In this document: one piece after another, positions 45,583 to 61,232 of the stretch
Position numbering within the stretch: the stretch's first letter is position 1
How the letters are laid out: each line of letters starts with the position of its first letter
Source of the DNA: Thelocarpon superellum
Taxonomy: Eukaryota
Assembly (NCBI GenBank): GCA_026025795.1
Contig: JAPEUG010000054.1
Coordinates: forward strand, 1-64,000
Direction: 5' to 3'
DNA: 64,000 nt
Translations under genes and position numbers: made by a program
The notes under the pieces: generated by a model
The model's database searches: none
Told to the model about the DNA's origin: nothing
The model's input: the letters and a program-made list of their open reading frames with translations, nothing else

Positions 45583-45621
45583 TCGCCATCGCCCTCGCCC
45601 TCGCCCTCGCCCTCGCCATCG
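45583..45621. repeat. Imperfect (TCGCCC)n hexamer repeat just upstream of the NOS start
   Basis: About six copies visible in the sequence. Confidence 0.85.
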
Positions 45622-45644
45622 TCTCTACCACGCCTGTGCCTACG

Positions 45645-48600
45645 ATGCCGCATCCGCACGCGCAGCTGACAACGAGCAACATGCCCGGCCTGACCCACCT
45701 GAGTACCACCACGAAATGCCCAGCGTTGACCCCCGAGTTACAACGCATCCAGGACAGTCACGCCGTCCTTGCCTCCACCGGTTGCTCCGCGAAATTCTGT
45801 CAAGCGGGTCGTGCGGTCCACACAGATGAACCCCGCGTCGGCGAAAACCGTACCCTAGCCGCCGTGCTGCAGGAAGCCGAAGAGTTTCTACGCGACCTCC
45901 ACCGTGACGGTGTTTTACCTTCCGACGACGCCCTGACCGCGCGTCTCCAACATGTCCGCGAGGAGATATGCCTGGGTGCCATCGACGGCCTCAGTCGACA
46001 GGATCAAGTACAATGCGAGCTGGGCGGAAACTGGACGCAAACTCCCCAAGAACTCGAGTTTGGTCTCCGTCGCGCCTGGCGGAATGCGAGGAAGTGCATC
46101 ATGCGGTCCCACACAGAAGAGCTCAAGTGAGTTGCCTCGCGTCGGCGATCGTGTCCCTACCCGCATTGGCCACCGATGAGGGCGCCAGGCTGATTGCATC
46201 TCTAGGCTCTGCGACTTGCGTCACGTCAACACCAGCGCTGGCATGGCCCGGGCGTTGATCGACGGCATGGTACAGGCCTTCAATGGCGGCACCATTCAGC
46301 CCACCGGTGCGTCGGCCCTTTCAGCTCTGCATCCGGTGGGGGACAAGCGGATGATGGCTGACCTTGTCCGCTAGTTTTTGTCTTTCCGCCCCGCACCCCC
46401 AATAGCCGTGGACCTATGATCTGGAACCATCAGATCCTCGCCTTCGCCGGGGTAAGGGCCTACGTCGCTCGTGCAACCCCATATCAGAGTGCCGCTAACA
46501 GGGGTGATGCAGTATCAAACCGACGACGGCTCAGTGCTTGGTGATCCGAAGAATGTTGAGCTGACCAACTCCTTCATCGAGCTCGGCTGGCTGCCCCCGA
46601 AAAGCCGCAGCCGCTGGGACCTCTTGCCTCTCGTTACCATGGCTGAAGGGGATCTCCCCGTCATCGCCGAGCTACCTGCGAGTCTCCGCACGCTGGTCCC
46701 CATCCGCCACCCTCATTATGGCACCGCCTTCGAGGAGCTGGACCTGAAGTGGGTGCCGTTTCCGGCCTTGACCCGACTCGGCTTCGATATTGGCGGCGTG
46801 CAATACACTGCCGCTCCATTCGTCGGCTGGTATGCTTCCCTCGTCACATCTCCGCCCTGGACTGACTGAGTGCCCCGTACAGGTTCATGGACGCCGAAAT
46901 CGGAGTGCGTAACCTGGGCGACACGAGTCGCTATAACGTCTTACCAGATGTTGTCCGCGTCTTGGGCCTGACGGACGGGAAGCTCGAAGGTGGCGTCGAG
47001 GGCTTCGACGATCTGCCCGAGTATGAGCGACTCATGATGCTGTCACGGGCCCAAGCCGAGCTCAACTACGCCGTGCATTGGTCCTTTCTCCGCGCCGGCG
47101 TGAGCATGTCGGACTCGATGACAGCCTCGACCAAGTGGATTCGCTACGACGACGCCTTCCAAAAGAAGCACGGCTATCGACTGCCGTCAGATCCATACTG
47201 GCTCGCCCCCCCGCAGGGTTCGATCATCCCACTTTGGCACCGCGGCGCCGCGCCGAACTACCAGCCCAAACCTTTGATCGCGCGGCACGTCGAGGACCCG
47301 ATCAAGGCGTGGGGACGCGAGAAGGACGCCTGGTCCGTCTTCACCACACCCTGTCGCACGCTCCCGACGCGGCCGGAAGCGGGCGACGCCACGAACCGCA
47401 TGAACGGTCGCCAGTCGGCGTCGACCGGCTTGAATGTGCGTGCGACGGGCCGGTCCAGTGTTCCGACTCGGGTCGTTCCGCGACTGCAGATTGGGGTGGA
47501 GCGTCATATTACTCGCTCACAGCCGAAGCCGAAGACCAAGATCGTGGTCCGCTTCTGCAGTGAGGGCACTATGGCGGAGAATCTTGCGGGCAAGCTACAT
47601 GGTCGCGTCCAAGAAATGATCAAGGCATCGGATCATGTGGACCTCTGTCCTCGCGTCGAGCCGCTCGACAATGTCGGCGCATCAGATCTCACGGCGGACA
47701 AGATCTTCCTCCTGGTGATCAGCTCCACTGGGCAAGGTGCCATACCCGCCAATGGATTGGCTTTTGCAGCGCTTTGCGGAACTCTTGCGTCAAAAGCCGT
47801 CTCGGACGGTAGCGAGTCCTTCCGATTCGACATCTTCGGCAACGGCGATAGCCGATACTCCACGACCTATAACGGTGGAGCCAGCAAGATGGCCGCTCAT
47901 CTCCGGTCCGTTGGAGGTGTGGCGCTGGCCGGTGGCCTCTTTGAAGGCGACACGGCGGCCCAGGGACTCCCCTTATCGGCACTGAACGCGTGGTGGGACA
48001 CGCTCAAATCCAGCCTGATGGACGTCGTGGGCAAAGGACTCCAAACGCCGAGCTCGAGCGGGAGCGCGAGTAGCAGTATGGGGAGCGGAACGGAGGGGGT
48101 CCTGAGCGATAGCGACACCTCCATGCTGAGCTCCCGATCGTCGGTCACGTCCTTGGACCGCTTCTTCCTCCGTGGACCGGAGCTCCTGTCGCACTTTCGC
48201 GACGCCGTCTTGGTCAAGACTTATCCCGCCGTGCCGCTCCGAGAGCAGGGATCGGTGCGGGTAACTCTGGACATTGGGCTGGAGTCCTACAAAGAGATGA
48301 GCTGCATTCAGATACTGCCGGTGACGTCCCCGGCAAAGGTGATGCGCGCCCTTGATGCGCTGTGTGTCAAGCCTTGGACGCCGGTGGAGCTTGGCTTGGA
48401 CGCGGCCAAGAATCCATCCTATGCTAGATTCTTGAGGGAATACGTGGATCTCGAGCAGCCGTTTGTGGGGATGAAGTGGTGGGACCAGCTCGACGTGAAC
48501 GCGCGCAAGCGTCTGGATCGGCAGACACTACGCGCACGACCGGTGCTGGAGGTGCTCGAACATCTCCAGGCACAGGACGTGCTCACCTACGCGCGATTCG

Positions 48601-49352
48601 ATGACGAGTTCCAGCGGGGGCTATGTCTAGATATGGCGGTCCTCCACCCACGCACCTACTCGGTCGCATCGTCGCTCCGGTTCCTCTGCGCGAATGGGAC
48701 ACACGGCTCCAGCAACAAGGTCGATGTGGTGGTCAAGGTACATCCGCAGGGACGATTCAGCAGCGTCTTCCTAAACGAGGCGTCGACTGGTGCATGTCTC
48801 CGATATCGCTTCGTCGATGGACATTCTGGTGACCGACTTCGACAAGACACGTCGGCGGCGCTCATCATCGTGGCGACAGGTGCCGGGTTTGGCCCGGTGC
48901 GGTGCCTGCTCCAACAACGCATCGCCGTGACACGGGAGCACTTGGCAGCGGGTGGTTCCCTCCCTTCGCGCAAGTCGGCCATCTCGCTCTTTCTCGGCCT
49001 GCGACGCTCCGACGTGGCCATGACGATCCCCGTGGTGCGCGAAGCGTCGTCGTTGAACCTCATCGACATGCTTTCCATCGTGCCGAGCAACGAGAACAAG
49101 ACCCGCGTGCACGACAAGGTGATGTCGGAGAAGTTTGCGTCACACGTGCGACGAAAGTTGTTCGATGGCCTGACGATGGTGTACGTCTGCACGAACCTGG
49201 ACGCGGCCAAGGCGATCGCAGCCGCATTTGATGTCTTGGTCGGCGGCAACGAGAAAGGCATGACAACGCCGTCGACGGCAGGCACCACTACGAAGAAGAT
49301 GAACAAGACGAAGATGATGTTGGGTGAACGATACATTGAGGAGGTCTTCTAG
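45645..49352 (+). CDS. NOS: Nitric oxide synthase-like protein (oxygenase + flavodoxin + FAD/NADPH reductase), ~1148 aa
   Basis: Exons 45645-46126, 46206-46306, 46375-46451, 46513-46829 and 46883-49352 splice in frame. Motifs: 'CSAKFC' (Cx4C), heme 'AWRNARKCIMR', 'WNHQILAFAGY', 'LGDP', 'PFVGWFMDAEIGVRNL', 'DPYWLAPP', FMN 'SSTGQG..PANG' and 'FGNGDSRY', FAD 'PRTYSVASS', NADPH 'ATGAGFGP' and 'YVC', C-terminus 'RYIEEVF'. The start codon is uncertain (45645 or 45681). Confidence 0.93.
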
Positions 49353-49418: not shown

Positions 49419-49535
49419 AACGGAACGGAACGGAACGGAACGGAACGGAATGGAAAGGAAGAACATGAAGGAAGGAAGCAAAGGAGGAAAGGAGGAAAGG
49501 AGGAAAAGGAGGAACGGGATGGGAGAAAGGAGACG
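49419..49535. repeat. (AACGG)6 microsatellite followed by a purine-rich tract in the NOS 3' region
   Basis: Six perfect copies at 49419-49448, then an almost pure A/G run. Confidence 0.9.
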
Positions 49536-50135: not shown

Positions 50136-51148
50136 CTAGGATGTTCCAAGCGCCGCCATGCGCTGGAAGCAGTTGGCATAAGCCACGTGCACCTCGGGCA
50201 CCTCGAAGTGATACTCCTTCAACTTCGTCACTAGCTTGGTGGTGTCGAGCTCGCAATTGCTGCGGCCAGCCTTGAGGATCTTGCTCTGTTCCTCGAGTGA
50301 GAAGTTCTTCCACGTGAAGCTCGGTCGGACGTATTGCTTGAAAAGCGCCAGCACCTCGTTGTGCGAGATGGCGCCCGGGTTGGTGAAGTTGTACACCCCG
50401 ATCTCCTTGTGCTCGGCCATCAAGATCGAGGCCGGGAGCAGGTCGTGCAGGATCGTGTTGGAGTTGGGCACGTCCACCACGCGTTCGTACTTGGCGATCT
50501 TTGTCACAAACGAGCGCGGGTGGAGGTCGTCCGATACCGGCATGCGCAGCCTCAGGATGAGACAGTTCGAATACGTCTGCATGATCTGTTTTGCGTGTCA
50601 GGCTCGATGCTCCTGGCTGGCCACGGGCCGATGACCCCTACCTCTTCCACCTTGGATTTGGTGGCGGAGTAGTACGAGCCGGCGAAATTGGCCGGGTCCG
50701 TTTCCACGTAGCCCGGCCCTCCGATCGGATGCTTGTCGTCATAGGCATAGATGCCTGCCAGGTTCCTGTCAGCAATCGAGATGGACGTCCACGGACGGAT
50801 GGGATGGCTTCTCGACTGACAGCCCGTTGCAAAGACGGTGATGTGGATATTCTTCAGAAAACAGCAGTCCGTCAGGTTCAGCGTGCCAATGACATTGCTC
50901 CGAACCGTGGCCTCCTTGTTGTCCTCGCACCAGTCGACATTGGGCCGGCCGGTGCAGCCAGCACAGTTGAGCACATGCGTGGGCTTCACTCGCTCGAGCT
51001 CGGCCAAGACCGACTCGCGGTTCTCCATCCGCACGGTCGTCGAGTGCACCGTCTCGCCTTGTTTGGTCAAGAGCTCCTTGAGGTGGCCAGCCACCCACCC
51101 TGCACCACCCCAAATCAGGAAGATATTGCCTTTGGACGAATCGACCAT
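50136..51148 (-). CDS. Nucleotide-rhamnose synthase / UDP-4-keto-6-deoxyglucose 3,5-epimerase-4-reductase (NRS/ER)
   Basis: 'FLIWGGAGWVAGHL', 'KPTHVLNCAGCTGRPNVDWCEDNKEATVRSNVIGTLNL', 'ATGC|IYAYD', 'GSYYSATK', 'LRLRMPVSDDLHPRSFVTKI', 'YNFTNPGAISHNE', 'RSNCELDTTKL', matching the plant/fungal NRS/ER family. Two introns. Confidence 0.94.
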
Positions 51149-51667
51149 GGTGACAGCACTTCTGCGGAAATGCCCAAAAGGAGGAGACGAAAAATCGGTC
51201 GGCGGACTCGACTCTGGTGCAGGAGAGTCGTGGCAGCCCCCCCGCTACCGAGCGGGACAGCGTCGTCAGGCGAACGAGAACCCCACGCCGGTACCCCTAA
51301 CGACCCGTACCCGTGCCTGAAAGCATGGGTGAAGGCCGCCCCACGCCAGCGACCGACGCCGGACGCAGCACAGGCGCCAAGCCAAGGCTAATAATAATAA
51401 TGGCATGGGGTGCTCGCCTTCTCACCCCCGGGCTCTCACACCTCTGAAACCAGCAGCATGGCGACCGTGTTCGTACTCGTGCTACAGGCCCACGCTCCCT
51501 ACACCGGTGAGTGGATCGCATGAAATCGTCACGTATCTCTTCGCCGTTGGAAAGGCGTCCGCACTCGAGCCAGTCGTCGACATTGTCACGCCTCACTCCT
51601 CCATACCCATGTGGCGAGCGCACACTGGCACAGCGACGCGGGTGCTACACTCGAAAGGGGCCCAACT

Positions 51668-52798
51668 ATGAGCGGGCTGCCCACGACCCACGAGTCTTCA
51701 TGGCGCCAGTCCTTTCAGTCGACCCTGGCGCTGGCGTCCATGGGGATGAAGAAACCCCGCTTCTACATCGCCGCCACCGTCGGTGCGCTGCTGCTCCTCT
51801 TGTTGTATGTCGCAGCCAGGCCAGGCCCATGTCCCGCGTCTGCCGCGAGCAGCCACTGACCGCAAAGCAGTTGGACCATACACACGTCCGACACCTCTCT
51901 GGCCGAACTCGAAGTGCCATCGGTGACGCTGGACTTTCATTCGTCGCCCTTCAATAGCAGCAGGCTGGCGCTGCTGGTGGAGAACCGGAAGATGCCCAAT
52001 CTGGTGCCGCTGATGCTGCACATGATGTCGGTCGTGCCGCCAGAATGGCGGTTCAACTTCATGGGCTCGGAGGAGTCGGTGGCACAAATGAACGGCTCGG
52101 CCGCCATCCGACGGCACGTGAGCAGCGGCAAGCTCGACCTGACCCTCGTGCCATCCAACATGAGCGTCGCGAGTGCAGAGGAGATCAGCCAGTTCTTCAC
52201 CACGCTGTGGCTGTACGACACGGTGCTGGCGCCGGCCGAGCACCTCTTTGTCTTCCAGACCGACAGTGAGTGCGACCTCTCCTCCGCTCGTCCGGCCGCG
52301 AGGCAGACGCTGATCCACAATGCACCAGGTATCCTCTGCGCCAACAGCGAGCAGAGCCTGAACGACTGGATCGATTACGACTGGATCGGGGCGCCATGGA
52401 TGCCAGAAGACCGATGGGGCGGCAACGGCGGCCTCTCCCTGCGACGAGTGAGCGCGATCAAGGAGATTCTGCAGCACCAAGAACGGCGAGTCGACTCGCA
52501 GGCCGAGGACGGCTGGCTCAGCGACCGACTTGCGGCGCGACCCGGCGCGCGCGTTGCCAACGCGAGCGAATCCGGCCGCTTCTCCAGCGAAACGCTCTTC
52601 AGCGAGCGACCGATGGCCTACCACATTGGCGGCTCGGGCACGATGATGCCCGCCGCCTTGCACCCCAAGAAGAACCGGCAGCAGATCTACGAGTACTGTC
52701 CCGAGTTCAAGCTGATCTTGGAGGTCATGGATGTCGATGGCCGCATCCCCGAGGGATGCGCCCTGGGAGACACGCATTTTGATGACGGATCGTATTAG
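51668..52798 (+). CDS. DUF5672 family type II membrane protein (putative glycosyltransferase), copy 1
   Basis: N-terminal TM 'FYIAATVGALLLLLFW' across intron 51805-51870. Motifs 'ALLVENR', 'VPPEWRF', 'FVFQTDS|ILCANS', 'YDWIGAPW', 'GGNGGLSLRR', 'EDGW', 'YCPEFKLI'. Confidence 0.85.
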
Positions 52799-53095
52799 GA
52801 GCATTGGCTTAGCTTGGCTTGGTTGAGGGTGGCCGAACTTCGCGTTCTGTATGAGTGCTGTACTGAGCTGTTTGATATCTGGGTAGATGGGTAGTTGGGT
52901 ATTCTAGTGGTAGCAATACGTTTGGGGTTGATCACATCGACTCCGTCTTGGCTATGGTCCGATCGTGCCCAGGCAACCCGTGCTTCCATTTCCATTCGCA
53001 TCTACTCTATCCATGCATCCTAAAGAATACGCCTGGGTCCAATCCCTGCATTCGACGGCTCGTTGGTGGGCCGGGACTACCAGCGAACCCCCATA

Positions 53096-54567
53096 TCACT
53101 TTTTGGTATTCATCATGATGTGGGAGTAGCTGTTACGCTCGTCAGCTGTGCCTGCCAATGGGACGAGATGGAGAGCGGAGCGAGGCCGCGGGTGACGTAC
53201 GAGATCATCCCGCCTAGCGCGAGTAAAATGCCGAAGATGCCCTTGTCGTTCACCGCCCGCCCGCTCGCGATCCAGCCCAGCGCCACGATGGAACATGTCT
53301 TGAGGTGGCCCACGACCGTGCTGCTGACCGGGCCGGCGCCGGAGATGATGAAGAATTGCGAGATGTTGATGAGACATGCACAGAGCCCGCTCTGCCCTGG
53401 ATGTCAGTCGTGGGTCAAGAGCAAGACGGAGGTTGTCCCGCACGTACCATGAGCACCAGAATGCATCGACCGAGCGTCAGGTCCGACCAAGTCGGGAGCG
53501 TGTCGGTGAAGGGAATGACGTAGAGAAGGAGACAGCCTCCAACGGGCATCAGGTTGAAGAGGAGCTGCATGCTGGCTAGCTGAAGTCGCTTCAGGTATGA
53601 CGCCACCCAGACCGTGTACACGGAACTGGCCAGCACGCCGGCAAAGGCAAAGAAGACGCCTGTCGGCGAGGTCGGCTTGGCCTTGAGGTTCGGATTCCCA
53701 CGAGAGTCGTAGTATGTCACCATGGCCACCCCGAGGCATGCCGGCACAAGGGCGAGCGCGGCGGCCCGGGAGATCTTGGTGCCGTAGAGGACAAAGTTGA
53801 TGATGACGACCGTGGGCGTCAGGAGGATCCGCGAGATCTGGTAGAAGGTGACGGACGAGAAAGCGAGCGAGGTGTTGGGCAGGATGACATTGAGCGCCAG
53901 CGCCAGCGCCAGCGGGGCCATGGCCCTGATGGGCACGCGTTGTGGCACAAAGAGGCCAAACTTGGGCCGTGACACGACATAGAGCGCGGCACCGGAAAGG
54001 AAGAAATGATACGCGGCAAAGCTGGTCTGCGCGTGCCGGAAGGCCTCCAGGTCGAAGATGTGCTTGTTGATGAAAACCTGGGCCTACGTGTAAGTCCCCC
54101 TCTCGATCCAAGACGCCACACGCCGCCGGGGTTAGGGGACGTACGATGCCAATGGTCGCCAGCGTGTTCACCGTCATCCACAAGGCCAGTCGTCCTCTGG
54201 ACTGACCGTCGCCTCGATCCTGCACCTTCTCCTCGCTGACGGGTTCGTCGCGGTCCAGGGACTGAGCCAGGGCATCGTCGACGCTTTCGCCACCCTCGCT
54301 CACCGAACTCAAGGAGCTCACGTCGCTGAAATGCAGCACCTCCTCTTTGGACTCGACGTTGCCCACTTGGACCACGAACGGCTCATCCTCGTGGGTTGGG
54401 GGAGATTGAGGCATGTTTGGTGATGAGGAGGAGGAAGCGGCATCCGCAGTCGCGTCAAGTATGCCTTTGCTCTCGTCCTGGGCCAGCTGTGGCTGGAGGC
54501 TGCGAGGTGCGGACCATGGCTTCTGCTTCACACGGCCGCTCCACAGCGTACCGACAAGTTCTGGCAT
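53096..54567 (-). CDS. Nucleotide-sugar transporter (TPT family, SLC35E3/URGT-like)
   Basis: 'VNTLATIGIV|FINKHIF', 'NVILPNTSLAFSSVTFYQISRILLTP', 'SMQLLFN', 'NISQFFII...GPVSSTVVGHLKTCSIVALGW'. About ten hydrophobic segments, three introns. Start codon uncertain. Confidence 0.9.
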
Positions 54568-55349
54568 GATGAACAACGGACATGCGGCCAGGAGCAGTGT
54601 ACAGGACCGGCCCTGTCGAGACGTGAAGGGTGCCAGCGTCTGGAGAGGTGCGACGAGCCATAGGCGAGACCTACCGCTGCTATTGGGGACCTCCCTACGG
54701 GAGTGGTCGACGAGTCCTGCTGGAATTACAAAGGAGCTCGTTAGGCGCACTCGTACCGGCCGTGCATGGTGCCTGAACGCCCGAGGCGCCGCACACGGCT
54801 GCATGACACGCCACTACCGTTACTTTCCGCGCCACTGGGACGACTGGCGTTCGCAGGGTTCAGTGGCCACGGCTCGTGCGCCCGGTGGTGGCACTGACCC
54901 GCCCCAGGCCTTGTCCCACGGTGTCATCCCATCCCGGCCGACGGTGGCCGTTTTCGAACCTAACCGTGCCTGTTTCGCCGTCTGCTGCGCCTCCATGCAC
55001 TGGCCAGCACGTCGCGTCCGGTCATTGCTGCCACCTCACCATCATCCGCATTGACAGGATCAATCGCTGGAGCTCGGCTGGTTGCGGAGGCTCACCGTCT
55101 GGAGATCACCTTCGACGGGACCCGCGTCACGACGCTATTGAATCCGACTGTAGCCGTCAGGGCTTTGCACGCATGAAACGAGAGACTTGGACATTCCTTC
55201 CAGCCTTCCAGGTGGTCTCTTGAGTCCGGCTGTTGCAAAAAGGATTTTGGGTGCCATCCTGGGGATCGTCGTGCCCTATCGGTACACTTCTCCTATTCAT
55301 CGGTCTGCGCTGCCACTGAGCGGTCGTTGAATCCTCGTCGTTGGACATC

Positions 55350-56819
55350 ATGATGAGCGCGGAATATCCTGCTGGCATGTACCATCAGTCTCCTCGACGA
55401 GGCGACTTTGCGCTGACTAGCGGGCGGTTCAGCGGCGGGGCCGAATGGTGGCGGCAGCCATCTCGCGGTGGAAGGGTCGGTGCTGAAAGGCACCACCCAG
55501 TTCGAGCCGCTGCCGGAAGTTAAGAACATCATGGTCACGGGCGGCGCGGGCTTCATGTACGACACCCCCCGACCATGCTCCAGATCAGATCCAGATCCAG
55601 AATCAAATCGTCGGCGTTCCGGGCGACCTTGATCGATCGCTGCTCGGGACGGACTCGTGCTAATAGCGCTGCCTCCAATTAGTGCGAGCTGGGTGGTGAG
55701 GCACCTGGTGCTCACTTATCCCCATGCCTACAAAGTGGTTTCGTTCGACAACCTGGACTATTGCTCTTCGCTGAATAACACGCGAATGCTGGACACTCGC
55801 AAGAACTTTGCCTTCTTCCACGGGGATATCAAGCGGTCCGAGGACGTGGTGCGGTGCATCAAGATGCACGAGATCGATACCATCATGCATTTTGCGGCGC
55901 AGTCGCACGTCGACCTGAGCTTTGGCAACTCCTATCGCTTCACCAGCAACAATGTGTACGGCACGCACGTGCTGCTGGAGTGCGCCAAGGAGATGAAGAT
56001 CCGCCGATTCATCCATGTCTCTACGGATGAGGTCTACGGCGAGATCGATGACCAAGATGAGGATCCGATGGAGAGCAGCCTGCTGGCTCCCACCAACCCC
56101 TATGCCGCCAGTAAAGCGGCGGCGGAGATGCTGGTGAATGCGTACTGGAAGAGCTTCAAGCTGCCGGTGATCACGGTGCGGAGCAACAATGTATATGGGC
56201 CCCACCAGTTTCCCGAGAGTAAGCCTGTCCTTCCCTCCTTCTCTTCTGTCCCCCTCGCCTTTGCTCTTGAGCTCCCATCCTCGCCGTCGCCATGGCCTGA
56301 TGTCTGACCGGTGTGGCAGAGGTGATTCCCAAGTTTGCCTGCCTGCTACAACGGGGCTCGCCCTTGATCCTCCATGGTGATGGCAAACACACGCGGCGCT
56401 ATCTTTACGCGAGCGATGCGGCAGATGCCTTTGACACGGTCTTGCACCGCGGCTGCCTCGGCCAGATTTACAACGTGGGCTCGCGCGACGAGATCTCCAA
56501 CTTGCAGCTCTGCTCTGAAGTGCTCCGTCTCTTCCACCTGCCGCACGACACAGAGGAGGAGCGGGCCAAGTGGATCACGCACTCGCGCGATCGGCCCTTC
56601 AACGACCGACGCTACGCAGTGAACGCGACGAAGCTACATCAGCTCGGATGGGAGCAGAAGGTCTCCTTTGCCGAGGGACTCGAGACGACGGTCGCGTGGT
56701 ACCGGCTTTATGGGCAGAGTTGGTGGGGCGATATTCGGAATGTCTTGGTCCCCTTCTCCTACGTCGCAGATAAGAAGGTGGTCTCCGAGGACGAGGGCGT
56801 GGATATTCCATGTCCATGA
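55350..56819 (+). CDS. UDP-glucose 4,6-dehydratase (RmlB/RHM N-terminal type)
   Basis: 'NIMVTGGAGF|IASW', 'DNLDYCSSL', 'HFAAQSHVDLSFGNS', 'HVSTDEVYG', 'PTNPYAASKA', 'RSNNVYGPHQFPE|KVIPKF', 'DRPFNDRRY'. Confidence 0.94.
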
Positions 56820-57287
56820 CCACGGGTCCGACCACGTGCTGGGCGCGTGGCGCCTCGTGCACCCATCTCTTGCCACCCCCGCATTCCACCACGTCATTTT
56901 GTGTCATGTCTTCCTTTCACCCTCGCTTTGGTCTGAAGTCCATGTGTTCGACGATGCTCTGAGAAGTAGATGCAGAAGATGTCGTACGCATGAAGTACCG
57001 CTAGTAGATGCTTGAGATCAGGTCGAAAAGTAGATGCATCACGACGGCGTAACTACACTGATTGGAGGCGGCACGTCAGAACCAATGGCGCTTTGGTGGG
57101 CGCTATGTGACGGCACGCCACCCGTCTTGCGTGATCTGCGCGAACATGAGCAACGCCGGCGCCCCTACGCAGGTACCGTCGCTAACGCTCGCCCCAAGAG
57201 ATTCCAGGAGACTTGCTCGAAGACCCAAGCCAGGGATACCCAGCACCCCAATAACAACGGTGCAGCAAGCCAGGGCCTGGCTGTGCG

Positions 57288-57357
57288 CCCAGCACCCAGC
57301 ACCCAGCACCCAGCACCCAGCACCCAGCACCCAGCACCCAGCACCCAGCACCCAGCA
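57288..57357. repeat. Heptanucleotide microsatellite (CCCAGCA)10
   Basis: Ten perfect tandem copies. Confidence 0.97.
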
Positions 57358-58064
57358 CTTCGTACTCGCATCCTCGTGCTCTACAAGTAGAGTATTCAAC
57401 GACCGCTAGTACTACTCTTACACGGCTGCATCAACAAATGACGTAGGAGGACTCGTAGCCTGGCTCCAGACACACGATCGGTCATGCAGCTGGCAGCTTG
57501 GCTTCAGGATGAAACCCAAGCGAAGTGAGCTCGCCGGCTGTGCTCGTGGGGGTGGTGTCCGGGCTACTCGTACTCGTACTCGTACTCCTTGACCTCCTTC
57601 AAAGGAGTTCGTCCTGCTGCGACAATGACCTGGACTCGTACCCGTCTATTACCGGCCGCCGTAGTGCCGGCGCGAGGGATCAGAACACGGCCCTCGCTAC
57701 GAGCGACGAGTAGGGAGCCGCTACGGGGCGGGGCCTCGTGCTTGACGATGGACACCATTCCATTTGCGATGAACGGAGGACTTTCGGTAGGAGGGAGCGC
57801 CAAGAAATATCCTCGTCGGCGCATAAGCATTGGGCGTGAGGTGAGACTCTCTACGCCGTCCACCCAAACATTCAAAGGCCACAGCGACGCAACCGGCGAG
57901 GGGCGGCCATGGTGCCCGCAAGCACCCGAATTACGACCGACGTCTCTGCGCGCTCAGTCTTGACCCAGGCAACATCGCCAGTGGCTTCACGACGGTGAGA
58001 GCTGCCTCGCGTCGACGCAATCCTGACGACGCGCCAAGATCGGCTCCCTCTCCCTCCATCCAAG

Positions 58065-59160
58065 ATGTTGCCGGGAATCTTGTCCCGGGGCGACCAGCAC
58101 ACGCTCTGGATCTATCTATCCACTTTGGCCCTGGTGTAGGTGACCTCTGATCGAGCGTTGCCCGCGCACGAGACGAGATGGCATGGCGCTGATGCACCGA
58201 CCGCACAGATGGCTGTTTGCCGCCCTCCTCCCCTCGCCCTCGAGCACAACCCACATGATCCAGCAAATCCTCCCCTCGGTCCGGGTCGACTTCCATCCCT
58301 CGCGCTCGCCCTACAATGAATCGAAACTGGGCCTGATGGTGGACAGCCGGCCGCTGCCGCAACTGGCACCGTTGTTGTTGCACATGATGTCGGTGGCGGG
58401 CCCCGACTGGAGGTTTCTGTTCCTAGGCTCCAACGAGAGTGTGGCGCTCGTCAACACCAGCTTTGCCGTGCGCCAACAGCTCGAGGCCGGTCGACTGTCG
58501 CTGCGAGAGATGCCTGAGGAGAACGTGACAACGAGCCAGGAGCAGTACAGCCAGCTGTTCACCAACCTAGCCTTCTACGAGAGCCTTCTCCCGGCCGAGT
58601 TCTTGTGGGTCTTTCATGCCGACAGCGTCATCTGCGCCAACTCGGAGCAGAATCTCGACGATTGGCTAGAATACGACTGGGTCGGCGCGCCATGGTATGT
58701 GACGAGGACTGCGACTCGCTGTGGCCTCGCCTCTTCGATACAACGGGGAGACTGACGCACTTTCGGCAGGGACGAATCCAAAAGCGTTTCGTGGAACACG
58801 CGCAAAGGAAACATGCCAGGCGGCGATGGCGGATTCTCACTGCGGCGCATCTCGCGCGTCATGGAAGTCCTACGCTTCCAAACCCGGTACGTGGAGGACA
58901 TCGATCCAGAGGACGAGTGGCTGGCGGCGCGCATCGGCAATTTGCCCAATGCCAAGATGGCCTCGCCGAATGATGAGCGGCGGTTCTGCGTAGAGGATCA
59001 GTGGTATGAGCAGCCCATGGGCTATCACCTGGGCCGCGTGCTGGAAGCCAGCGGTGATCCTATCTGGAACGATCCCCAACGACGACGCGCCATCTTTGAC
59101 TATTGTCCCGAGGTCAAGATGGTCCTGCCCATGGTGAAAGTCAACCGCACGTGTTTCTAA
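58065..59160 (+). CDS. DUF5672 family type II membrane protein (putative glycosyltransferase), copy 2
   Basis: TM 'TLWIYLSTLALV|WLFAALL' across intron 58136-58208. Motifs 'PLLLHMMSVAGPDWRFLFLGS', 'VFHADSVICANSEQNLDDWLEYDWVGAPW', 'GGDGGFSLRR', 'EDEW', 'PMGYH', 'YCPEVKM'. Second intron 58695-58769. Extra 5' exons from ~57748 are possible. Confidence 0.85.
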
Positions 59161-59298: not shown

Positions 59299-61232
59299 TC
59301 ATCTTCCGTGCCGCCAAATAGCATCAGCCATCTTAACCACCTGCGCCATGTGCGCGACGTCATGGACGCGCACGATGTCCGCGCCGCCAGCCACCGCGGC
59401 GCTGATGGCAGCCGCAGTACCCCAGATGCGATCCCTGGGCTCCGCGACGCCCGTGATCCTCCCAATGAAGGCCTTGCGACTGGGTCCCACCAGCCACGGC
59501 AAGCCCTGTAGGCCTGACCAGTCGCGCAGGAGGTGGAGGTCGCGTAGCAGCTCGAGGTTCTGCGCCTGCGTCTTGGCGAACCCGATGCCCGGATCAACGA
59601 GGATGCGCCATCGTCGTATGCCTGCCGCCTCCGCGGCTTGGACTCGTGCGGAGAGCTCGCGCGCCACGGTAGGGACGATCCCCTCGGGATATTGCGTCAG
59701 TTGCGTCATGGTGCTCGGTGTTCCCCGCATGTGCGTCAGGCATATGGACGCGCCTAGCTTGGCGACCGTCGCGAGCATCGCGCGGTCCAGCGTGCCGCCC
59801 GAGACGTCGTTGACCAGGTCCGCACCGGCGCCGACGGCCTCCGCCGCGACCCGCGCCCGGTAGGTGTCGATGCTGATGCAGAGAGGACGGGTTCGCGCTG
59901 CGGATCGCAATGCCCGAATCATGGGTACGGTGCGGCGAAGTTCTTCCTCTTCACTGACCTCCATCGCACCTGGTTTGCTCGACTGCCCGCCGACGTCGAC
60001 GATCGTGGCGCCAGTGACGTCGAGTAGCTCCATCGTGCTGCTGGCCAGGGCATCCACGTCCACGTTGAAATTATCGCCGCCGTCAGAGAAGGAGTCAGGC
60101 GTGACGTTCACAATTGCCATGACTTGCGTCGAACGGTTTTCCGCTAGAGGAGTCAGGGGTGGTAATGATGGAGAAACAGGCGTAAGTGTCGATGTAGCGG
60201 ACTCAGAACCTGGTAGAGACTGTAAAGTGGTTTGAAAGGTTGTCAATGGGTGCGGCGAGGGGTGGAAGCCGTTCGGAATAAGGCTGCCTGGTCAGTCCTA
60301 ATCCTGCCCTGCGACAAGGTGTTACTTACTCGCAGAGTGGACGAAGGACGAATTCTCGCTCCAGCATCAGCGGATGCGGGATTGTGAGCCTTGAGTGCTG
60401 CATGGAAAGGTGGTCATAGAGCAAGATATCCAAGTCGATGTTCCGAGGGCCTTTATCAACCACTTTCTGCCGACCCATATGCCGTTCGATGTCTTGAAGC
60501 TCTTCAAGCAGCTCCAGAGGGCTCAGCTCCGTTGTAATCTAATTGTCACCGCGTTAGACGCACCGCGGGCCACCGTGTACCATCGACTTCTATTTCGACT
60601 AACCTCACCAACACCATTTACAAACGGAGCTTGATCGACGACGTACATGGCCTCGGTTTCGTATAACGAGCTGGTCCGGGCCAGCGCAATTCCTCGTCGT
60701 TCCATCTCACGACATGCCCGTTCAATCATCGCAATCCGATCTCCCTCATTGCTTCCTAGGCCTATGAAGGCCCGTGCTTTTGGTGTGGATGAGGTGGTAT
60801 CATTGTTGGCGGCTGAGGTGGGCAAGGGTCTTCTCGCGGCCACCCCGGAGGATTTCCTGTCGTGTGCGACTGATTCCGTACAAATTGGCCACCTTCTAGA
60901 ATGTTGAGGGATCTGCAATAAGGGTTCATCTCGATAGAGTGCCGCGTGTCTGGAGCACAAACGTCAGCGAATTGAAACACCGCTACGCACAATGGCGGGC
61001 TAAGCAGATTGACATACGAGCAAGAGCCTTCCCCGCCGCTCTTTTCGGCTTCGCGATAGTCAGCTGTGTGTTTCAACGATGACACGCTTAGACATGATTG
61101 GCTTCCAGGCAAAGCTAAGCTACGTCCTGGTCTGAGCAGTGCGCGCCGGCGCTCTGTGTGGAAGGATGAATGTGGCCAGAGCTCGAATGAGCGACGCAGA
61201 GACCATCGCAAGAGCAGTGGAAACTCGAGCAT
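59299..61232 (-). CDS. FOL1: Folate synthesis protein, bifunctional HPPK-DHPS with probable mitochondrial presequence
   Basis: HPPK 'AFIGLGSNEGDR', 'SSLYETEAMY', 'GPRNIDLDILLY', 'IPHPLMLEREFVLRPL'. DHPS 'NVTPDSFSDGG', 'ISIDTYRA', 'NDVSGG', 'HMRGTP', 'DPGIGFAK', 'SRKAFIG', 'VRVHDV'. Intron 61017-60950 joins an Arg-rich first exon in phase. Confidence 0.93.

Follow-up and report, generated by a model that had tools for sequence, protein, structure and literature searches.

A fungal-type nitric oxide synthase gene of Thelocarpon superellum and the unusual active-site signature of its clade

Fungal genes resembling nitric oxide synthase (NOS) are known from sequence (PMC4160249, PMC10073611, PMC10889981), and a fungal NOS is cited as a contributor to forming the triazine when 2-azahypoxanthine is synthesised in Lepista sordida (PMC10831120). 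A review states that fungal NOS may differ in substrate specificity, with no residues being named there, and according to a paper on lichens no gene orthologues had been identified (PMC6681199). For the mammalian neuronal enzyme (nNOS) it is stated that Tyr588, the equivalent of Tyr367 of the inducible enzyme (iNOS), hydrogen-bonds the α-carboxylate of L-arginine and of N-hydroxy-arginine (PMC6120233), and nNOS Arg481 and Asn569, corresponding to iNOS positions 260 and 348, are grouped in a docking paper among the residues expected to take part in binding (PMC10343299). Docking to mouse iNOS placed Tyr341, Tyr367, Asp376 and a residue printed as Gln275 around one oxygen acceptor (PMC8158245), and a Val-to-Ile difference between animal and bacterial NOS affects ligand binding (FEBS Open Bio paper). 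Such genes bear on the route by which fungi, lichen mycobionts included, make nitric oxide (NO). Here, we describe a NOS gene of the lichen-forming ascomycete Thelocarpon superellum, located in a 64,000-nucleotide stretch of contig JAPEUG010000054.1 (assembly GCA_026025795.1, positions 1 to 64,000), which is called the window and to which all coordinates refer, and we compare its predicted active site with those of its relatives.

The gene and the residues of its active site

The five exons of the locus make up an intact gene, which encodes a full-length NOS of the fungal type with an N-terminal Cys-x4-Cys motif, a haem-thiolate oxygenase domain, a linker, a flavin mononucleotide (FMN) domain and a divergent, putative part for flavin adenine dinucleotide (FAD) and reduced nicotinamide adenine dinucleotide phosphate (NADPH). 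Its reading frame is intact up to and including the stop codon, its four introns are all bordered by GT..AG and are 53–79 nucleotides long, and the spliced product of 1136 amino acids is identical to the database protein P0001, labelled by NCBI as a hypothetical protein of a T. superellum metagenome-assembled genome. Thelocarpon is a pezizomycotine ascomycete. Residues 63–444 match the Pfam family NO_synthase (PF02898) with an E-value of 9.6e-87 and 291.7 bits against a cut-off of 22.7 bits. An AlphaFold2 model of residues 1–467, based on an alignment of 43 rows, has a mean predicted local distance difference test score (pLDDT) of 90.1 and a predicted template modelling score (pTM) of 0.88, and in Foldseek it matches the haem domains of nNOS, iNOS and the endothelial enzyme (eNOS) with E-values of about 2e-37, template modelling (TM) scores of 0.86–0.89 and 30–32% identity. 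By sequence, the best solved relatives are the bacterial bsNOS (2.1e-61), nNOS (1.6e-60) and iNOS (about 3e-59); a search of the ESM Atlas gave no usable match.

The residues were assigned from HMMER alignments to solved NOS chains, which are ungapped across the motifs in question, mouse iNOS numbering being the chain index plus 76 (1nod family). Around position 341 the assignment was drawn from the nNOS and bsNOS alignments, in which KWVPFPALTRL of the query aligns with KWYGLPAVSNM and KWYGVPIISDM, respectively, and the mouse iNOS motifs YMGTEIGVRD and ADWIWLVPP pair with FMDAEIGVRN and SDPYWLAPP of the query. An original prediction, made from the sequence alone and covering exons 3 and 4 and the start of exon 5 (46375–47270, about residues 183–443), had claimed from a hand alignment that both tyrosines binding the substrate α-carboxylate (Tyr341 and Tyr367) are replaced, that Val346 has become Leu and Trp455 has become Pro, and that Gln257, Trp366, Glu371, Arg375 and Trp457 are retained. 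These assignments are borne out throughout: Tyr341 is replaced by Val289 in both alignments and Val346 by Leu294 (bsNOS has Ile at 346), the mouse iNOS alignment places Phe315 at Tyr367 and Pro418 at Trp455, and the retained residues are Gln202, Trp314, Glu319, Arg323 and Trp420. P0001 is accordingly without either member of the tyrosine pair, and the other ligands of the amino-acid end are represented by Gln202, by Asn324, which takes the place of Asp376 as Asn also does in bsNOS, and by Arg330, the equivalent of Arg382. The haem-thiolate Cys139 in the motif RKCIMR (Cys194 of iNOS) and the proximal Trp133 (Trp188) are kept. In these alignments, the core that binds and oxidises the guanidinium group, i.e., the equivalents of the haem Cys, the proximal Trp, Glu371 and Trp366 and those of Arg375 and Trp457 at the pterin/propionate site, is intact.

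Further replacements are found around this core. Arg296 stands at the position of Asn348, Val312 at Asn364, Asp317 at Gly369, Ala318 at Thr370 and Ala205 at Arg260, and Met141 takes the place of Gly196 near the haem Cys. On the pterin side, Tyr419, Trp432 and Gly435 correspond to Ile456, Phe470 and Glu473. The GWFM motif, to which Phe315 belongs, straddles intron 4, the codon of its Trp being composed of 46828–46829 and 46883.

The C-terminal half is less easily assigned. The FMN domain, recognised by Pfam (Table 2), also matches the yeast NADPH-cytochrome P450 reductase 2bf4 with an E-value of 1.1e-10 in a search with the C-terminal 614 residues. FAD_binding_1 gave no Pfam match in P0001 and NAD_binding_1 reached 14.6 bits, under the cut-off of 22; the relative P0057 attains NAD_binding_1 at 24.7 bits. 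In the same search, the flavoprotein of sulfite reductase (E 3.5e-4) and, as a second stretch, the NADPH part of 2bf4 (i-Evalue 0.048) are matched weakly. The FAD/NADPH part of P0001 contains the sequences PRTYSVAS and TGAGFGP, putative flavin and NADPH motifs. The lack of a FAD_binding_1 match agrees with the highly derived FAD domain of fungal NOS that was already noted in published phylogenies (PMC10073611).

Distribution of the signature in the fungal clade

Residues 1–467 of P0001 were compared by phmmer with 1.84 billion cluster representatives, resulting in 1601 matches with E ≤ 1e-3, 337 of them with E ≤ 1e-30; the best 150 were used. Among these best 150 matches, identity to the query splits cleanly into fungal-type sequences with at least 49% and all other NOS with at most 46%; the groups were divided at 47%, a threshold picked after the gap was seen. 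Alignment of 263 proteins to the query with phmmer gave 273 rows, 164 of the fungal type and 109 others. Many rows are truncated gene models, so that fewer letters are present per column, and two proteins give a fragment to each group; since many of the fungal rows are closely related, the counts are of rows and not of independent events. It had been proposed together with the original prediction to check whether the substitutions are clade-wide, and the same pattern was found in every motif-covering sequence among the 120 best homologues. Such constancy of the flagged residues within the clade goes beyond chance. The counts for the full set of rows are given in Table 1.

Table 1. Residues at selected positions (mouse iNOS numbering) in rows of fungal-type NOS and of other NOS
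Position	Fungal-type rows	Other NOS rows
194	Cys 63/64	Cys 105/105
341	V 85, K 8, A 3, Y 3 of 106	Y 61, H 23, F 11, C 5 of 105
346	L 105/106	V 61, I 38, L 5 of 105
364	I 83, M 7, V 6 of 106	N 91, S 13 of 105
367	F 100, Y 7 of 110	Y 88, F 17 of 105
455	P 141/145	W 94/101
456	Y 142/145	mixed
470	W 145/145	F 65/96
473	G 145/145	E 46, D 10

The catalytic core is retained in the fungal clade, as is seen for Gln257 (88/93 rows), Trp366 (104/107), Glu371 (116/118), Arg375 (116/118), Arg382 (116/118), Asp or Asn at 376 (117/118) and Trp457 (142/144), and Cys194, Gln257, Trp366, Glu371, Arg375, Arg382 and Trp457 are kept in the fungal and the other NOS groups alike. Next to the positions in Table 1, Gly369 is replaced by Asp in 116 of 121 fungal rows and Thr370 by Ala in 113 of 118. 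None of 94 fungal rows has an arginine at position 260, compared with 72 of 105 others. At 348, arginine occurs in 99 of the 106 fungal rows but not in any of the 105 others, which have N, D, S, G or E there. As read from the alignment, the fungal signature is composed of Val341, Leu346, Arg348, Ile or Val at 364, Phe367, Asp369, Ala370, Pro455, Tyr456, Trp470 and Gly473 together with the absence of Arg260.

These residues do not stand by themselves. Among the other NOS, 89 columns show a conservation of 80% or more, and at 19 of these the consensus of the fungal clade is another one, including the change of Gly196 to Met, the loss of the Trp six residues past the haem Cys (W200), the change of Arg252 to Met and the D-H-H motif. 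The pocket changes thus belong to a divergence that affected the whole domain on the clade's stem. In a FastTree phylogeny of the 148 rows in which 300 or more of the 341 core columns are covered, all 52 rows of the fungal type group together with a support of 1.0 and a long stem, and by this topology the signature arose on the long stem of the clade along with many other changes. Almost all fungal tips read V-L-R-I-W-F-P-W at positions 341/346/348/364/366/367/455/457, and P0001 reads V-L-R-V-W-F-P-W; the signature residues are near-invariant across members from Ascomycota and Basidiomycota that are 50–70% identical. The named members of the clade are mainly Lecanoromycetes that form lichens, together with Lepidopterella and two basidiomycetes, Collybia nuda and Collybia sordida. 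The Collybia sequences (P0008, P0012 and P0120) nest among the rows of ascomycete lichen fungi and not outside them, which could be due to transfer between the fungal phyla or to ancient paralogy.

The gene has nothing exceptional within its clade of fungal NOS, which was known before, though little characterised. As the pocket residues are common to the whole fungal branch, they are a mark of this branch and no proof of a new substrate for this enzyme, and a lineage signature that is seen in one gene should not be taken as a private adaptation of that gene. A description of the pocket signature or of a NOS gene of a lichen mycobiont was not found in the literature texts searched, subscription papers and supplements lying outside this search. 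Intact full-length NOS genes occur in many lichen-forming fungi, and the clade as a whole has one fixed, unusual active-site signature that is worth biochemical testing. For enzymologists the residues of interest are Val341, Phe367, Ile364 and Asp369, the swap of the arginine between 260 and 348, and Pro455, Trp470 and Gly473.

Substrate, pterin and alternative readings

Taken together, the sequence comparison suggests with reasonable, though not high, confidence that P0001 is an active guanidine-oxidising fungal NOS, which most likely still converts L-arginine to NO and in which the carboxylate end of the pocket and the pterin/dimer site have been rebuilt. The guanidine would be bound over the haem as in other NOS. 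The amino-acid end of L-arginine, most likely still the substrate, might be held by the equivalents of Gln257, Arg382, Asp/Asn376 and Glu371 and by a channel arginine relocated from 260 to 348, which would replace the two tyrosine hydroxyls. Binding of L-arginine would probably be weaker or differently tuned, as mutation of Tyr588 alters substrate binding and oxidation in nNOS, and does so strongly (PMC6120233). The bulkier Leu346 above the haem may alter the kinetics of gas ligands, and the rebuilt wall that the partner subunit contributes to the pterin site suggests either that the pterin is not tetrahydrobiopterin or that the dimer packs differently. A lysine occupies position 341 in eight fungal rows, six of which form one subclade (P0058, P0049, P0051, P0045, P0026 and P0054), fitting an anionic group at this spot. 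Arg296 at the position of Asn348 was also considered as a new clamp for the carboxylate and was rejected as the simplest reading, as it is precisely this clade that has lost Arg260; the loss of the one and the gain of the other in the same clade are most simply read as a relocation of the channel arginine.

Several points weigh against continued use of L-arginine. Both hydroxyls binding the carboxylate are gone, Asn364 has become hydrophobic and a new Asp stands at 369, in between 367 and 371; together, these pocket changes could disfavour a carboxylate. Arg348 looks like a swap with Arg260 and not like a new clamp replacing the tyrosines, and the strong effects of mutating Tyr588 point in the same direction. 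The electron supply is presumed, because the FAD domain is too divergent to be recognised by Pfam. Moreover, fifteen of the 105 non-fungal rows are also without both tyrosines, but to our knowledge none of them represents a characterised enzyme, and both positions are occupied by Tyr in the solved cyanobacterial NOS (9q15/9q05).

In the alternative reading, that of the original prediction, the clade would have switched to a guanidine whose α-carboxylate is modified or absent, such as agmatine, arginine derivatised at its N- or C-terminus, or peptidyl-arginine, or it would serve a dedicated biosynthetic pathway and not signalling; we regard this as unlikely. The clade-wide loss of the Tyr341 and Tyr367 hydroxyls, the exchange of Asn364 for Ile or Val and of Gly369 for Asp, and the binding of the α-carboxylate by nNOS Tyr588 would support a changed substrate, and the paper describing the latter cites studies whose titles present a role of Tyr588 in substrate specificity (PMC6120233). 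However, Gln257, Arg382, Asp/Asn376 and Glu371 at the amino-acid end are still conserved, Lys341 favours an anion, the fifteen other rows show that the tyrosine pair is dispensed with elsewhere in the family, and the 19 changed columns are spread over the domain, so that the changes show no focus on the carboxylate site. Outside the fungi, Phe367 is accompanied by an acidic residue at 369 in 6 of 17 rows versus 10 of 88 rows with Tyr367, an association that is suggestive and is not relied on because the rows are related. For a biosynthetic role it speaks that NOS has a part in making natural products, both in bacteria and in L. sordida (PMC10831120), and that L. sordida has seven NOS gene candidates (PMC6458111), seemingly beyond the needs of signalling. 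The original prediction had offered such a role as well, and here the neighbourhood does not bear it out: among the 39 stop-to-stop open reading frames (ORFs) of at least 150 amino acids that were compared with Pfam across the 64 kb, a scan in which short-exon genes could be missed, there is no P450, polyketide synthase, non-ribosomal peptide synthetase, terpene synthase or methyltransferase family, and thus gene clustering lends no support to a dedicated biosynthetic role. One recombinant NOS paralogue of L. sordida has reportedly been assayed with arginine. What stands of the original interpretation is the altered pocket, which extends over the whole clade, is held under selection and is accompanied by a changed pterin/dimer wall; its proposal of a substrate other than free L-arginine is shown by nothing in the present data, the other residues of the amino-acid end being conserved. 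An alternative substrate is thus unproven and, going by the residues, seems somewhat less likely than a retuned use of arginine.

A change of the pterin, e.g., to tetrahydrofolate, or of the dimer packing would not exclude any of these readings and might be added to the retuned use of arginine; we consider it a tentative but serious possibility. In iNOS, W455, F470 and E473 of the partner subunit reportedly form part of the wall of the pterin site, and these positions as well as 456 are replaced almost without exception in the fungal clade (W455P, I456Y, F470W and E473G; Table 1), position 455 being Trp in nearly all other rows, and Trp457 and Arg375 are kept. Bacterial NOS use tetrahydrofolate according to earlier reports. 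However, bsNOS as one of these reported folate users keeps the W-x-W motif (GDWTWLIPP), and the fungal change is therefore unlike that of the known folate users. That the gene is a decaying or non-catalytic relic of a NOS is very improbable: the 19 changed positions and the FAD domain unrecognised by Pfam would fit decay, but four canonical introns interrupt an otherwise unbroken frame, neither the haem Cys nor the guanidinium-binding residues have been lost, the oxygenase model is confident, and the new residues are held near-invariant between the fungal phyla at the identities given above. In its widest form, which we consider doubtful, the idea of a new activity would hold for the whole clade, from lichen fungi to fairy-ring mushrooms, which might have moved off free L-arginine and/or tetrahydrobiopterin to a carboxylate-modified or carboxylate-free guanidine or to half of the NOS reaction, and to a different reduced pterin. 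If this was true, 'fungal NOS' would be a distinct enzyme activity.

Gene environment and comparison with known NOS systems

The coordinates of the gene, of its active-site codons and of selected neighbours are collected in Table 2. Simple repeats flank the gene on both sides, and in comparison with iNOS and bsNOS 14 residues (345–358, region LEGGVEGFDDLPEY) are inserted between two oxygenase-domain helices, where the alignment consensus keeps LP..ERL. Of the 39 scanned ORFs, 23 have a Pfam match, in each case to a family of the housekeeping, sugar-nucleotide or hydrolase type, and the other 16 match none. The neighbours include a Rrp6-type exonuclease, Gpi1, a MutS homologue, a FCP1/BRCT phosphatase, the U3-associated protein 6 and a PGAP2IP-type protein, among others. 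Downstream of the NOS gene there is a run of sugar-nucleotide-type genes (50136–58755), which may represent a deoxy-sugar module of the rhamnose type. About 10 kb downstream of the NOS gene lies a Pterin_bind ORF, which is most likely a housekeeping gene of folate synthesis whose nearness to a pterin-dependent enzyme is coincidental.

Table 2. Positions of the NOS gene, its parts and codons, and neighbouring features in the window
Feature	Position	Strand	Evidence or remark
(GCCCTC)n simple repeat	45590-45625		upstream of start codon
NOS gene	45681-49352	+	five exons, stop codon included
Exon 1	45681..46126	+	residues 1-149; Pfam NO_synthase match here
GCSAKFC, N-terminal Cys-x4-Cys motif	45780-45800	+	exon 1
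Trp133 codon (iNOS Trp188)	46077-46079	+	proximal Trp
Cys139 codon (iNOS Cys194)	46095-46097	+	haem thiolate
Intron 1	46127..46205	+	GT..AG; spliced product equals P0001
Exon 2	46206..46306	+	gene model
Intron 2	46307..46374	+	GT..AG
Exon 3	46375..46451	+	contains the codons of Gln202 and Ala205
Gln202 codon (iNOS Gln257)	46431-46433	+	kept
Ala205 codon (iNOS Arg260)	46440-46442	+	arginine lost
Intron 3	46452..46512	+	GT..AG
Exon 4	46513..46829	+	nNOS alignment E 7.8e-23; ends with first two bases of Trp314 codon
Val289 codon (iNOS Tyr341)	46753-46755	+	nNOS and bsNOS alignments
Leu294 codon (iNOS Val346)	46768-46770	+	
Arg296 codon (iNOS Asn348)	46774-46776	+	
Val312 codon (iNOS Asn364)	46822-46824	+	
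Intron 4	46830..46882	+	GT..AG; splits codon of Trp366 equivalent
Exon 5	46883..49352	+	oxygenase end, linker, FMN domain, FAD/NADPH part, stop codon
End of oxygenase domain	46883..47273	+	first part of exon 5; mouse iNOS chain alignment, Pfam
Phe315 codon (iNOS Tyr367)	46884-46886	+	mouse iNOS alignment
Glu319 codon (iNOS Glu371)	46896-46898	+	
14-residue insertion	about 46974-47015	+	residues 345-358
Pro418 codon (iNOS Trp455)	47193-47195	+	mouse iNOS alignment
Low-complexity linker	47274..47573	+	about residues 445-544; no Pfam match in stretch
FMN (flavodoxin-like) domain	47574..47981	+	residues 545-680; Flavodoxin_1 33.1 bits, cut-off 25
Divergent FAD/NADPH part and stop codon	47982..49352	+	weak matches; protein ends ...YIEEVF
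PRTYSVAS	48648-48671	+	FAD/NADPH part
TGAGFGP	48876-48896	+	FAD/NADPH part
(GGAAC)n simple repeat	49420-49450		just past stop codon
RmlD/epimerase-like ORF	50552-51244	-	Pfam
DUF5672 ORF	51860-52798	+	Pfam
GDP-mannose/dTDP-glucose 4,6-dehydratase-like ORF	55633-56307	+	Pfam
DUF5672 ORF	58144-58755	+	Pfam
Pterin_bind ORF (dihydropteroate synthase type)	59299-60291	-	Pfam E 2.5e-76

Compared with described systems, the gene differs from the cluster-encoded biosynthetic NOS of the TxtD/RufN/PtnF type, which have P450 or tailoring partners, in that no cluster of this kind was found among the ORFs scanned around it. The multidomain NOS of the Synechococcus type offer a parallel to the pocket: the relative P0184 has Cys341 and Phe367, and both tyrosine hydroxyls are absent as in the fungal clade, whereas the solved enzyme of this type (9q05/9q15; 1468 amino acids with a NOS domain at about 510–825 and extra N-terminal domains) has Tyr at both sites, showing that the tyrosine pair varies within one conventional NOS lineage. 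bsNOS (1m7v/4d3v family) is the best whole-sequence match among solved structures and shares the Asn at 376; unlike P0001, it keeps both tyrosines, Ile346 and the W-x-W motif and has neither an N-terminal extension nor a fused reductase.

With the mammalian nNOS, iNOS and eNOS (1nod, 5vv0 and 1nse) P0001 shares the fold at the TM scores and identities given above, the haem Cys, Glu371, Trp366, Gln257, Arg375, Arg382 and Trp457, the N-terminal extension with its Cys-x4-Cys motif and the fused, putatively diflavin, reductase. It differs from them by Y341V, V346L, N348R with loss of Arg260, N364V, Y367F, G369D, W455P, F470W, E473G and G196M, by the insertion past residue 344 and by the divergent FAD domain. 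Finally, the NOS-like proteins known from Aspergillus, Colletotrichum/Glomerella, Macrophomina, Dendrothele and Lepista are joined here by one from the lichen-forming ascomycete Thelocarpon. The gene belongs to the same clade and has the same architecture as fungal NOS-like proteins, as shown with P0008 of Collybia sordida, the current name of Lepista sordida, which is 50% identical to P0001 over the full length and carries identical residues at positions 341, 346, 348, 366–371 and 455–457.

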